This document shows, piece by piece, positions 2,331 to 4,737 of a stretch of 4,737 bases of DNA (the stretch's first letter is position 1; each line of letters starts with the position of its first letter). Both the position numbers and the translations under genes were made by a program. Origin of the DNA: a virus (taxonomy: Duplodnaviria > Heunggongvirae > Uroviricota > Caudoviricetes). The notes beneath the pieces were generated by a model, which saw only the letters and a list, made by a program, of their open reading frames with translations, was not told where the DNA came from and made no database searches. The DNA lies in IMG/VR virus record IMGVR_UViG_2695420382_000015. One strand, given 5' to 3'.

Positions 2331-2689
2331 TCATTCCCCATTTCGGTGATGGTCAGTTCCAGCCTCCCACCTTTGGTAACAGGCATCTTCACAACGCGGT
2401 AATCAACGACCTGAGCATCATCCAGCCAGAAACCTGCTTTGGTGAGTGCGTCAAAAGCGGCTTTTTGCAGATTATCCAGGTCACGGCGACGGCGATCCGG
2501 CATGTGGCACTCAATACGGATTTTCACTGGCATAGCCAGGCCGATATCCAGCATTGCGTTTTTAATGATTCGGGTGACGTTATCGCGGTATGCCTGCCCT
2601 TCTGCGCTGATGTGTGTGCGCCCGCGATTATGGCGGTAATAGCGGTTATTGCTCGGAGGCCAGGGTAATGTGATGCTGTAGGTATTCAC
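2327..2689 (-). CDS. rusA: Holliday-junction resolvase RusA (crossover junction endodeoxyribonuclease), 120 aa
   Basis: Translation [120 protein letters not shown] is recognised as RusA. The initiation codon is GTG at 2689-2687, overlapping the ybcO stop (GTGA). Confidence 0.93.
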
Positions 2690-2976
2690 GCCTTAATAAC
2701 CCCCTCTTTCAGCCAGATAACCTGCGTTCTCGCCATACCTTCCAGCGCGCATTCTTTTGCATACTCAGCATCGACAAAATATGTGCGGCGGTCGATTTCG
2801 TCGTGACAGGCAGAACATGCAATGGTGGCAATCAGGTCTGGCGGTTTGATACCGGTACCGCACAATCCAGCCAGCCGGATATGTGCCAGTACTGACGTTT
2901 CAGGATTGCCATTACATACGCCAGGGATTCTTACCTGGCATTCCCGACCACGCGCTGCTTTTCTCAAATCAGCCAT
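2686..2976 (-). CDS. ybcO: YbcO-type (DUF1364) Cys-rich putative nuclease of the lambdoid nin region, 96 aa
   Basis: Translation [96 protein letters not shown]. Start ATG at 2976-2974 with GGAGGA 5 nt upstream (cctcc at 2981-2985 on the + strand); the ORF track's longer start at 3015 is rejected. Multiple Cys pairs suggest metal binding. Confidence 0.87.
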
Positions 2977-3139
2977 GATTCCTCCTTGCTGCCAGTCGCA
3001 ACCATTTTTTATCAACCAGGCTAGCGGTATATCCGAGCAGTGTTGGTATTTCGGATGGCTTCAGCTCAGGCTTACGCTTACGACGATTTGATACTCTGTA
3101 GATGTGCCCGTTCATGACACGAATAAGCGGTGTAGCCAT
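2969..3139 (-). CDS. ninE: NinE-family small basic protein (56 aa)
   Basis: Hand translation gives [59 protein letters not shown] at 3139-3137 shares one base with the ybcN stop (TAATG), and the 3' end overlaps the ybcO start by 8 nt. Absent from the ORF track because it is short. Confidence 0.8.
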   Translation of the reverse strand: MATPLIRVMNGHIYRVSNRRKRKPELKPSEIPTLLGYTASLVDKKWLRLAARRNHG

Positions 3140-3594
3140 TACGCCTCCTGCTTATCGCGCAGCTGCTGGTATTCACAGCTCTGCGGAATTGTCAGGTGGC
3201 AGCCGATATTCATCGCCCAGGCTTCGACTTTGCACAGGAAGATGTACATCTCGCCGGTTTCCAGCTCTGACGTATGGCGGAGGGATTGGACGGTGGTGAC
3301 CTCGCCGGACACGACATCTACACGGTCTTTGCTTTCGTAGCCGAGATAGGTGTGCTTCATCGCGTCTTTGACCCACTCAGGCGTAGCGAAGGTCTTGCCG
3401 CGGGCGATGAGATATTCGCTGATCTCCGTGTACCACATGTGGCTGAGCGCGTTCTGCGACAGGCTGCGCTTCTCGCGCCACGGCTTAACCTGCAGGCGTA
3501 AGCATTGCCCGGCATCCAGCAATGGCTGAATCTGCTGGCCGATGGCCGCGAAGTTACCGCGATGGAGTTTGATGCCGTCTACTGGCAGAGTCAT
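3139..3594 (-). CDS. ybcN: YbcN / NinB-family recombination-associated DNA-binding protein (151 aa)
   Basis: Translation MTLPVDGIKLHRGNFAAIGQQIQPLLDAGQCLRLQVKPWREKRSLSQNALSHMWYTEISEYL... The RSLSQNALSHMW core resembles the NinB (orf family) motif. ATG at 3594-3592 with GGGAGG 4-5 nt upstream. Confidence 0.88.
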   Translation of the reverse strand: MTLPVDGIKLHRGNFAAIGQQIQPLLDAGQCLRLQVKPWREKRSLSQNALSHMWYTEISEYLIARGKTFATPEWVKDAMKHTYLGYESKDRVDVVSGEVTTVQSLRHTSELETGEMYIFLCKVEAWAMNIGCHLTIPQSCEYQQLRDKQEA

Positions 3595-3686
3595 ACGGCC
3601 TCCCTAACGGAAACCGCAGAATGCAGAAAATCGCAGGTGCATTTCTGCATCTGTGACAAGGTGATGAGTTCAGATTGTGGTCGCAT
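3591..3686 (-). CDS. ylcH: Small ORF (31 aa) in the position of DLP12 ylcH, translationally coupled to ybcN
   Basis: Minus-strand ORF MRPQSELITLSQMQKCTCDFLHSAVSVREAV with AAGGGGA upstream of ATG (3686-3684) and a TGA stop overlapping the ybcN ATG (ATGA). Assignment to ylcH rests on position and size; I do not recall the reference sequence exactly. Confidence 0.5.
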   Translation of the reverse strand: MRPQSELITLSQMQKCTCDFLHSAVSVREAV

Positions 3687-3705
3687 TTAAGTCCCCTTAA
3701 ATGCG
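3682..3705 (-). promoter_or_regulatory. Hairpin (9 bp stem, 6-nt loop) enclosing the Shine-Dalgarno and start codon of the ylcH-like ORF
   Basis: Arms cgcatttaa (3682-3690) and ttaaatgcg (3697-3705) are perfect complements. On the minus-strand RNA the loop GGGGAC carries the SD and the ATG lies in the 3' arm. No U tract on either side, so it is not a classical terminator. Confidence 0.25.
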
Positions 3706-3792
3706 CAGAAGTCACCGGAGTTGTTCAGGCTCCGATGAGAGGATTATGGCGGATTGATTACGATAAATCAAAACTATCTTGAAGCCAAAACA

Positions 3793-3822
3793 GTGATCTT
3801 CGCTTTAAAAACCTTGTATACT
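3793..3822 (+). promoter_or_regulatory. Candidate sigma70-type promoter for the A+T-rich cassette (-10-like TATACT at 3817-3822; weak -35-like GTGATC at 3793-3798)
   Basis: The only reasonable -10 match upstream of the cassette's first gene on the + strand; the -35 element is poor. Purely sequence-pattern based. Confidence 0.2.
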
Positions 3823-3858
3823 TTCACCTAATCACAGCCAGAACTATGGATCTAACCA

Positions 3859-4236
3859 ATGACCAACAAAGAAAACAAAGATAAATATATTAACAAGTTC
3901 AAGAAAGAGCTTTCAAAATATATACAACCAACTGCTGGAGTGGACATTCAATTATTTAACTCTAAGGATGGTGGTGGTGTAATTAAAGCCACTTTGAATA
4001 GAAGTGGAAAAAGAAAATCATCTATTGCTGGTAATTTTACTAAATTAGGTGAGGCAATTACCTCGAGTGGGCAGAGGGTTTTTGGTGGTGATCTATCAAA
4101 TGTGAATTTTTACGGAACAAATACGATTTTTGATGGAGATACAATATTTTTAATTAAATCACCTGATTCAGAGGAGTGGTCATCACAAAAAGCTTCCAAA
4201 GACGTAGAGGGCATCGTATTTGGAGGGAAAAAATGA
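3859..4236 (+). CDS. Hypothetical protein, 125 aa, Lys/Gly-rich, predicted soluble; first gene of a two-gene A+T-rich cassette
   Basis: Uninterrupted ORF with an in-frame TAA two codons upstream of the ATG at 3859 and a weak GGA 8 nt upstream. Codon usage and composition differ strongly from the flanking phage genes. No family recognised. Stop TGA (4234-4236) overlaps the next gene's ATG. Confidence 0.55.
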   Translation: MTNKENKDKYINKFKKELSKYIQPTAGVDIQLFNSKDGGGVIKATLNRSGKRKSSIAGNFTKLGEAITSSGQRVFGGDLSNVNFYGTNTIFDGDTIFLIKSPDSEEWSSQKASKDVEGIVFGGKK

Positions 4237-4661
4237 TTAACATTACTACTAAGGATGGCACTCAAGTCAGTGGTGAAGTAAGAGATCTAGTAATTCTTCT
4301 TGAAACTGATGGAAAAACGGTGTCTGATTATTTGCAGCCAATCCCTCCCAAAAAAGATACACACTGGAGCATGATTTTCATTCCGGTAGCAATTTATATA
4401 CTACTTAATCTTGTATACATTATTGCTCACCCATTATTTCCTGAAAAATATCTAAAAACATCAACATCTATATTTCTATTCATTTCCTTCATATTAAGTG
4501 CAATAGTAGCATATTTTGTTTTCCATAAGCATAAATCTGCCACTCTATCCATATGCAGCTTAGTGTTCTTAGTGTTAATTGTAGGTGCTAACGTAGGGTT
4601 TATCAGTTACAGCGACCTAACACAAAAAGCGACGCAAAAATTAGATAGTTTGTCTAAATAA
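4233..4661 (+). CDS. Hypothetical small membrane protein, 142 aa: about 65-residue soluble N-terminal domain followed by three predicted transmembrane helices
   Basis: ATG at 4233-4235 with GGAGG at 4222-4226 (6-nt spacer), overlapping the upstream stop (ATGA). Hydrophobic segments WSMIFIPVAIYILLNLVYIIA, IFLFISFILSAIVAYFVF and ICSLVFLVLIVGANVGFISY are separated by short charged loops. The ORF track's 4176 start lacks an RBS and runs inside the upstream gene. Confidence 0.6.
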   Translation: MINITTKDGTQVSGEVRDLVILLETDGKTVSDYLQPIPPKKDTHWSMIFIPVAIYILLNLVYIIAHPLFPEKYLKTSTSIFLFISFILSAIVAYFVFHKHKSATLSICSLVFLVLIVGANVGFISYSDLTQKATQKLDSLSK

Positions 4662-4668
4662 TTATGTT

Positions 4669-4689
4669 GCCATGCGAAGTATGCATGGC
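4669..4689 (+). repeat. Inverted repeat (7 bp stem gccatgc/gcatggc, 7-nt loop) just 3' of the cassette's second gene
   Basis: Read directly; no U tract follows, so terminator function is uncertain. A second short palindrome ccatttaaaatgg lies at 4703-4715. Confidence 0.2.
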
Positions 4690-4737
4690 TGCATGTCTGC
4701 CTTCCATTTAAAATGGGCTAAGACCTATAACCCTAAA

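Follow-up and report, generated by a model that had tools for sequence, protein, structure and literature searches.

What do two small, A+T-rich genes do in a lambdoid prophage when they are read against the direction of their neighbours? The question is raised by a cassette at positions 3859-4661 of a 4,737-nt stretch of viral DNA (IMG/VR record IMGVR_UViG_2695420382_000015, Caudoviricetes), which is a portion of a DLP12-type lambdoid prophage and is referred to, as a whole, as the window; the two genes are here called A and B. An original prediction, made from the letters of the window alone, had described the cassette as a candidate undescribed accessory or defence module, resembling abortive-infection (Abi), superinfection-exclusion and toxin-antitoxin (TA) modules by analogy. 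The analysis presented here establishes that A and B are optional cargo in the prophage and constitute a conserved pair present in several phyla, and leads us to propose, tentatively, that they form a mobile conflict module.

A coupled cassette at a variable prophage site

The features on which the argument depends are the following (ORF, open reading frame).

3859-4236, + strand: gene A, 125 aa (ORF; RefSeq WP_000182282.1, hypothetical)
4222-4226, + strand: GGAGG Shine-Dalgarno sequence for gene B, within the 3' end of gene A and 6 nt before the ATG
4233-4661, + strand: gene B, 142 aa from the ATG at 4233 (ORF and N-termini of homologues; RefSeq WP_000608370.1, hypothetical)
3773-4737, + strand: cargo segment, from the end of similarity to other lambdoid phages and prophages to the end of the window

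Both genes are on the + strand, and the flanking genes quuD, ylcG, rusA, ybcO, ninE, ybcN and a ylcH-like gene are all on the - strand, as had been proposed. Their overlap at 4233-4236 is an ATGA (ATG of B at 4233-4235, TGA of A at 4234-4236), and this, together with the strong GGAGG in front of the second gene, bears out the translational coupling that the original prediction had described. A longer ORF starting with GTG at 4176 results from mechanical ORF calling and does not mark the true start, since all homologues of B begin at the methionine of MINITTKDG. The difference in composition, previously judged by eye, could be measured: the cassette has 33.9% G+C (34.1% in A and 33.6% in B) versus 50.1% in the phage block 1721-3594, and the G+C content at third codon positions is 0.26 in A and 0.28 in B versus 0.47-0.76 in the genes of that block.

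Both genes are under strong purifying selection, with dN/dS ratios between diverged cassettes of 0.068-0.081 for A and 0.074-0.091 for B. This bears on one alternative, namely that the ORFs are non-functional remnants or chance frames in A+T-rich junk DNA. Such an explanation could appeal to the fact that gene A is not preceded by a strong Shine-Dalgarno sequence and to the absence of an annotated function, but dN/dS values of 0.07-0.09, full-length homologues in at least four phyla and the conservation of pairing and coupling exclude it, and the probability that we assign to it is practically negligible.

The location had been proposed to be a variable-cargo site of DLP12-type prophages upstream of ylcH/ybcN, and comparison with relatives agrees with this. 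When positions 3600-4737 were used as a query, phage and most Escherichia coli matches stopped at query positions 173-181, which correspond to 3772-3780 of the window; as similarity to sequenced lambdoid phages ceases there, the cargo segment was placed at approximately 3773-4737. Of 5426 complete E. coli genomes, 2778 have the flank (ylcH/ybcN) and 46 have the cassette, so that the latter is not a core component conserved in most related prophages. The 46 copies share at least 99% identity, and their host strains come from pigs, primates, dogs, chickens and humans. Four alternative sets of genes occupy the same position, between the replication gene P and ylcH, in other DLP12-type prophages: ren, emrE and ybcK; a ren-like gene, emrE, ylcJ, ybcK and P22AR; ybcL and ybcM; and a HEPN-domain gene with a hypothetical gene and P22AR genes. 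The cassette is, in short, optional cargo at a hypervariable site.

The cassette keeps its position in 17 IMG/VR prophage contigs, whose alleles on either side differ (identities of 80-100% for YbcN and of 65-100% for O), which indicates that cassette and flanks recombine independently. A repeat search of the window revealed neither direct nor inverted repeats at the flanks that would point to insertion in the manner of a transposon, and among the INPHARED phages, searched by megablast and by tblastn with A, only the flank was matched.

The A-B family and its proteins

Word-based searches retrieved only enterobacterial relatives of A, with at least 63% identity. A full HMMER scan with an A profile (E<=1e-3, clustering at 50% identity) gave a much wider family of at least 111 clusters, nearly all of them full-length proteins of 120-135 aa. 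Named members belong to Klebsiella, Citrobacter, Enterobacter, Acinetobacter, Mesorhizobium and Chryseobacterium, and genome scans added Bacteroides, Flavobacterium, Mariniflexile, Deltaproteobacteria, Myxococcales, Acidobacteriota and Betaproteobacteria, so the family spans at least four phyla (Proteobacteria, Bacteroidota, Acidobacteriota and Myxococcota).

Wherever DNA was available, the gene directly 3' of A encodes a protein of 122-154 aa, lies at a distance of -20 to +45 nt, mostly with an ATGA overlap, and carries the N-terminal motif of the B family followed by two or three hydrophobic helices. A B-type gene came directly after A in all 16 genome or contig loci, in all four distant viral contigs and in 27 of 28 metagenome loci by inspection, the 28th being recognised with a hidden Markov model (HMM). 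An HMM census of the fetched loci yielded 73 with both genes; those with A only were four loci cut by the end of a contig, one A fragment (L089) and a fusion of A to an HNH nuclease domain described below. In 19 of 20 metagenome loci, and in the majority of the genome loci, the cassette is poorer in G+C than its flank. Of the two proteins, A is the more conserved. A and B thus form an obligate, phylum-spanning two-gene unit. In one metagenome contig of 63% G+C (L082, 3165-4520), the frame of the B domain stays open for about 310 further residues, either through a fusion or a missed stop; this extension has an R-x4-H motif, HEPN-like by eye only, and no PDB sequence match.

Protein A is hydrophilic, has no signal peptide and is predicted to be cytoplasmic. 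The positions conserved in the family alignment are Y10, L22, G39, F84-x-G-T-N, K100, W107 and D115, and an alpha-beta-beta-alpha-beta-beta-alpha arrangement is predicted by a low-confidence model (pLDDT 58.5). The models of both A and B are weak, because they were built from shallow enterobacterial alignments that predate the deep family. The proposal that neither product belongs to a recognised family held for Pfam, NCBIfam, PADLOC and PDB, and in PHROGs both appear only as families of unknown function (phrog_18061 and phrog_16940). A had no Pfam match at E<=1 and no NCBIfam match above threshold, and 78 diverse A homologues gave only scattered, chance-level single matches in Pfam and PADLOC, with no DUF4747 and no antitoxin-type domain among the Pfam models. 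A search of PDB sequences with the A-family profile returned nothing significant (best, Spc97, E 0.065), and a fold search with A against BFVD gave no match at E<=0.001.

Protein B presents a different architecture, with three long hydrophobic helices after an N-terminal domain made of a beta-hairpin plus a helix (model pLDDT 67.7). The N-terminal motif of the family is (E/D)G(T/S)PxEIxxFxxxxGxxxxDY. The transmembrane (TM) segments were located from hydropathy windows and AlphaFold helices.

4233-4367, + strand: N-terminal soluble mini-domain of B (aa 1-45; about 35-45 aa), beta-hairpin plus helix, predicted cytoplasmic
4368-4430, + strand: TM helix 1 (aa 46-66)
4461-4523, + strand: TM helix 2 (aa 77-97), followed by a conserved basic loop, HKHK, predicted cytoplasmic
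4539-4604, + strand: TM helix 3 (aa 103-124); the C-terminal tail after it is amphipathic with a net acidic charge and is predicted to be periplasmic

Charges pooled over 21 B homologues (K+R versus D+E) were 49 versus 40 in the segment before TM1, 22 versus 19 in the TM1-TM2 loop, 35 versus 7 in the TM2-TM3 loop and 41 versus 50 in the C-terminal tail. From the strongly basic TM2-TM3 loop, and according to the positive-inside rule, we infer an N-in/C-out topology in the inner membrane, which would leave the N-terminal domain in the cytoplasm, together with A. Six Pfam families matched B below threshold and none above it (best, 7TMR-DISM_7TM, 21 bits versus a cut-off of 29), and NCBIfam gave no match above threshold. 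No Pfam holin family matched, and the lysis genes essD/rrrD are found elsewhere in the prophage.

These results are relevant to a reading of the cassette outside genetic conflict, in which lysogenic conversion would provide the host with a small channel, transporter or stress module under a cytoplasmic regulator. In other prophages the genes emrE, ybcL and ybcM occupy this site, some copies of the pair have housekeeping neighbours, and the automatic names given to B homologues in their sources (VIT1/CCC1 transporter, PrsW) hint at a transporter-like composition, although no significant match lies behind them. However, no transporter or channel family scored above threshold for B, and a patchy presence in about 1% of E. 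coli genomes, the low G+C content and repeated insertion at defence loci are atypical of metabolic cargo. We consider this explanation quite unlikely.

Disrupted copies of each gene could also be observed. In E. coli CV839-06 (L053, NZ_CP025753.1, 860-2439) an IS1 inside A leaves a 49-aa stub, next to a complete and unchanged B; this strain matches the window at 100% in the flanks, and its copy constitutes a natural A knock-out. In two IMG/VR prophage contigs, 1-base deletions frameshift B and leave A intact (L035, around 6399, and L043, around 6535), which may reflect real decay or sequencing errors.

Signals and prophage setting

The signals located around the two genes, and others in the flank, are listed here.

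3793-3822, + strand: candidate sigma-70 promoter of the cassette (GTGATC, 18-nt spacer, TATACT), proposed from sequence
4663-4695, + strand: hairpin directly 3' of the B stop codon (dG -16.6 kcal/mol, z -2.9), without a U-tract
3743-3771, - strand: promoter-like site for ylcH-ybcN-...-rusA (TTGATT, 17-nt spacer, CATAAT), in the flank and divergent from the cassette
3614-3649, - strand: two terminator-like hairpins in the ylcH region
4733-4715, - strand: terminator-like site after P (sequence scan)

The promoter that we infer for the cassette is conserved in a copy whose A protein is 92% identical (L044), and a TTGATTTTTA -35-like motif aligns with it in two much more distant cassettes (L046 and L014). 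It scores 8/12, under the 9/12 threshold of the promoter scanner, which made no call at 3793-3822; the terminator scan made no call at the 3' hairpin. The structure of this hairpin is kept in three diverged cassettes, with loop and outer stem altered (-22.7 in L044 and -27.5 in L046), and it is a candidate for a 3' end or stabiliser element of the cassette. In the flank, the promoter-like site at 3743-3771 and the two hairpins at 3614-3649 match features annotated in the homologous stretch of phage 82 (X92588), where putative -35 and -10 signals are marked together with a site for binding of a regulator. Rfam gave no match in the window. Given that the cassette faces early-right (pR) transcription, it would be expressible in the lysogen and countered by convergent read-through during lytic growth.

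The remaining genes of the window are the following, all of them identified as ORFs.

450-1532, + strand: OmpC/NmpC-type porin gene, intact
1721-2119, - strand: quuD
2190-2330, - strand: ylcG
2327-2689, - strand: rusA
2686-3015, - strand: ybcO
2969-3139, - strand: ninE
3139-3594, - strand: ybcN
3591-3686, - strand: ylcH-like small ORF

In complete genomes, the next gene past the right end of the window is P, on the - strand. Judged from relatives, the last base of the window is 3 nt short of the P stop codon, and in one of them (L001) P ends 78 nt beyond gene B. The complete genomes that share the segment hold a full prophage integrated next to an Arg tRNA gene, with integrase, exo/bet/gam, repressor region, O, P, nin genes, Q, and lysis and head genes.

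The porin gene, named 'porin OmpC' by RefSeq in related prophages, is located between Q and the lysis genes and is a second opposite-strand cargo gene within the same prophage; the copy in DLP12 of strain K-12 (nmpC) is presumably interrupted by IS5. On the 5' side of the porin gene, positions 136-173 are 38 N bases in a very A+T-rich stretch, and listed ORFs that span them are meaningless. The ybcN allele of the window has about 78-80% DNA identity to that of most DLP12-type prophages, including K-12. As ybcN is diverged while the neighbouring rusA and quuD are nearly identical, a mosaic joint lies near the cargo site.

Possible function and known systems

The pair is confined neither to DLP12 prophages nor to phages. 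It is found again on the opposite strand between P and nin genes in a Citrobacter lambdoid prophage, with an A protein about 30% identical, and also on a mobilisable plasmid of about 4.7 kb with the order Rep (Replicase plus PriCT_1)-A-B-MobC-relaxase-RelE/HTH, which was present in 129 collection blocks (L016-L019, L008). Rep and A overlap by 11 nt on this plasmid, and one of the sequences (L016, 9424 bp) consists of two units joined head to tail; PLSDB, searched by tblastn and megablast, gave no match, the plasmid-borne variant included. In Chryseobacterium the pair is located on an integrase-bearing element with a Bro-N/BstA_C gene, in Acinetobacter on an island with an integrase, a KAP NTPase and a SNIPE/T5orf172 gene, and in Mariniflexile between two transposases. 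Viral contigs have it beside integrases or DNA methyltransferases, and it also adjoins PIN and DUF4160/DUF2442 genes.

Several of the contexts are defence loci. In an uncultured Bacteroides sp. (L025, 3969-9919) the pair is inserted between the type III restriction-modification genes mod (N6_N4_Mtase) and res (ResIII plus RE_endonuc), on the same strand, with a SNF2 helicase and a DUF4391 gene upstream. At another locus it is directly upstream of brxA (Pfam), and the BrxB model was matched somewhere among the pooled neighbours. Two loci (L091, 3990-6252, and L092, 258-3051) encode N-terminally extended A proteins of 220 and 243 aa, followed by three-TM proteins that weakly match the B profile, and may be three-gene variants: one, in an integrative and conjugative element (ICE), has a gene for a caspase-like Peptidase_C14 just upstream, and the other comes after a gene for an unannotated 545-aa protein, in which GHKL-ATPase-like motifs were recognised by eye only. 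Finally, a 447-aa protein (L010/L011, 246-1589) has an N-terminal A-type domain, an HNH nuclease domain (PF01844, E 1e-12) and an unassigned C-terminal region of about 200 aa; its contigs end 77 nt past the gene, and a B gene downstream is possible. As a separate observation on the E. coli site, strain 02E060 (L006, 4678-5474) has there a HEPN-domain gene that overlaps the gene for a 133-aa hypothetical protein, a possible TA or defence pair, which suggests that the P-ylcH site gathers conflict genes.

Constant pairing, purifying selection, foreign G+C content, patchy spread, location on mobile elements and insertion at defence loci are hallmarks of conflict systems, either defence (Abi) or TA. 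In addition, A being encoded first, the cytoplasmic mini-domain of B and the occasional joining of A to a nuclease suggest that a sensor or regulator in the cytoplasm acts on an effector in the membrane. The reading that we favour is therefore a mobile two-gene conflict module of the Abi or exclusion type, in which cytoplasmic A would control the membrane effector B; we regard it as possible and not far from probable. In such a scheme, a horizontally mobile cassette, or moron, would have been placed between P and ylcH/ybcN with its own candidate promoter and 3' hairpin, and translational coupling would supply A and B in a fixed ratio, so that they act as one unit. A trigger, such as infection by another phage, would cause A, through contact with B, to release or activate it; the membrane would be compromised and the infection aborted.

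A number of points weigh against this reading. The defence assignment is one of guilt by association from a modest number of loci: defence genes accompany the pair at a few loci among about 20 independent lineages, and three or four loci have housekeeping neighbours only (e.g. L013, L021 and L027). The A-HNH fusion comes from just two near-identical 1.6-kb contigs (three samples). The structural models are of low confidence, fold searches having given only generic alpha/beta sandwiches and helical bundles, and PADLOC-DB v2.0.0 (2023), which includes candidate PDC families and lactococcal Abi, gave no family for A or B at E<=1. Furthermore, TA modules show the same genomic habits. Of the original proposal, the undescribed accessory cassette is supported by optional cargo, foreign composition and absence from known families, and the defence part stays a candidate by association.

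A TA (addiction) pair that stabilises mobile elements has to be weighed in this context: B would be a membrane toxin and A a protein antitoxin, made first and, owing to translational coupling, in excess, with no dedicated anti-phage role. The order is that of many type II operons, with a small gene first and an overlapping second gene, the pair is found on a small plasmid, an ICE and prophages, and its neighbours include the TA-like PIN, DUF4160/DUF2442 and RelE/HTH genes. Frameshifted B with intact A, in two of the 17 prophage contigs, is the decay expected of a toxin. On the other hand, a RelE/HTH pair is already encoded on the plasmid of about 4.7 kb, neither a DNA-binding nor a known antitoxin domain is present in A, B falls into none of the known toxin families and several copies are in apparently non-mobile chromosomal settings. 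A constitutively toxic B would not be tolerable in strain CV839-06, where A is disrupted, unless polarity of the insertion silences B. Overall, a TA pair appears unlikely to us.

Superinfection exclusion of a non-abortive kind is another alternative, with B hindering DNA injection or a membrane receptor or transporter on which incoming phages or plasmids depend, and A helping in assembly or regulation. Small size and an inner-membrane location are features of known exclusion proteins (T4 Imm, P22 SieA and HK97 gp15, for example); B is a membrane protein in lysogen orientation on prophages, and the plasmid copy, between rep and mob genes, occupies a possible place for entry-exclusion genes. However, exclusion proteins usually act alone, and B has an obligatory cytoplasmic partner that is better conserved than B itself. 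The predicted periplasmic portion of B is limited to about 12 residues of loop and about 20 of tail. Intracellular conflict systems would also be a better fit to the A-HNH fusion and to the restriction-modification, BREX and caspase neighbourhoods. This makes exclusion, in our opinion, decidedly unlikely.

Two other roles were considered and rejected: a bacteriocin and immunity pair, given that A lacks both a leader and an export signal and that none of the contexts is a bacteriocin locus, and an accessory role in replication, for which adjacency to P and to the plasmid Rep could have been cited, as most chromosomal copies have no nearby replication gene.

Returning to the conflict-module reading, if A-B is a defence or toxin module, it would be a compact (0.8-kb) and widespread system without homology to those catalogued, one that defence annotation in its present form would overlook in genomes of E. 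coli, Klebsiella, Enterobacter, Acinetobacter and Bacteroides, and the P-to-ninB gap of DLP12-type prophages would be a cargo site able to hold immune genes. A broader version, which we find rather doubtful, would make A-B the founding example of an unnamed class of phylum-spanning mobile immune modules, with A as a new small sensor or regulator fold wired to varied effectors and, in E. coli, Abi through membrane collapse, by which DLP12-type lysogens would be protected from other phages. The effectors would, just as doubtfully, be a three-TM B in most cases and an HNH nuclease in one, with a caspase-like protease or the 545-aa protein added in some. Should the pair prove to be no more than an addiction module, it would still introduce a new type of membrane toxin, a three-TM protein that has a mini-domain in the cytoplasm and is controlled by a partner of 125 aa. 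The cassette is also tractable, being small and self-contained, with natural knock-outs of A and of B in existence. Neither a publication nor a DefensePredictor supplement was found with the WP accessions, the PHROG identifiers or the N-terminal sequences, although a very recent description is possible.

Pairs of a cytoplasmic and a membrane protein on mobile elements were already known; what is new here is the breadth of the family, the obligate pairing, the selection, the contexts and the A-HNH fusion. With respect to packaging, the cassette resembles the morons of lambdoid phages (bor and lom in lambda; nin cargo): it is an extra unit present in some relatives only and at one site, as the 46 versus 2778 genomes and the alternative cargo illustrate, with a distinct base composition (33.9% versus 50.1% G+C), on the opposite strand, accompanied by a 3' hairpin and its own candidate promoter. 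The term moron names packaging and not function, and the content here is an unnamed, widespread two-gene family. Lambda Ren has the same map position, directly after P, but is encoded on the opposite strand to the cassette and is unrelated in sequence (hhalign probability 0.1%).

TA systems of types II and V with a membrane toxin, such as GhoS/GhoT, share with A-B a gene order in which a small alpha/beta protein of the cytoplasm precedes a membrane protein, as well as tight gene coupling and location on mobile elements. The ATGA overlap is in keeping with the two small, adjacent, co-transcribed genes of a type II system, whereas Pfam and NCBIfam assigned neither protein, above threshold, to a recognised TA family or DNA-binding antitoxin, and the 78 A homologues yielded no antitoxin-type domain. 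GhoT has 57 aa and B has 142 aa with a soluble domain, no Gho or toxin family is among the six sub-threshold Pfam matches of B, and a natural disruption of A with B intact sets the pair further apart from TA pairs.

The closest resemblance is to the RexAB-type systems of prophages (PMC6426596, PMC7542560, PMC12894663). RexA/RexB of lambda and the mycobacteriophage pairs Sbash gp30/gp31, CarolAnn gp44/gp43 and Butters gp30/gp31 are, like A-B, two adjacent genes of temperate phages, expressible in the lysogen and with conserved synteny, in which the gene for a cytoplasmic protein immediately precedes that for a small multi-pass membrane protein (about 140 aa; RexB, 144 aa). They are thought to work as cytoplasmic sensor and membrane effector (PMC6426596, PMC7542560), the same logic proposed here. 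The proteins themselves are unrelated: comparison of the A family with lambda RexA gave an hhalign probability of 0.04%, and that of B with RexB 0.2%. RexA has 279 aa and DUF4747, versus 125 aa and no DUF4747 in A, and RexB has four TM helices, versus three plus an N-terminal soluble domain in B, also across the 21 homologues. The likeness to Abi, exclusion and TA modules noted in the original prediction has been carried beyond analogy by obligate pairing, mobile and defence loci and the A-HNH fusion. RexAB membership fails. Given the absence of DUF4747, the three instead of four TM helices and the lack of profile similarity, A-B would be a pair that may work like RexAB, with a cytoplasmic gene placed directly before a membrane gene on a temperate phage, and that, unlike RexAB-type systems, is also carried by plasmids, ICEs and chromosomal defence islands of several phyla.

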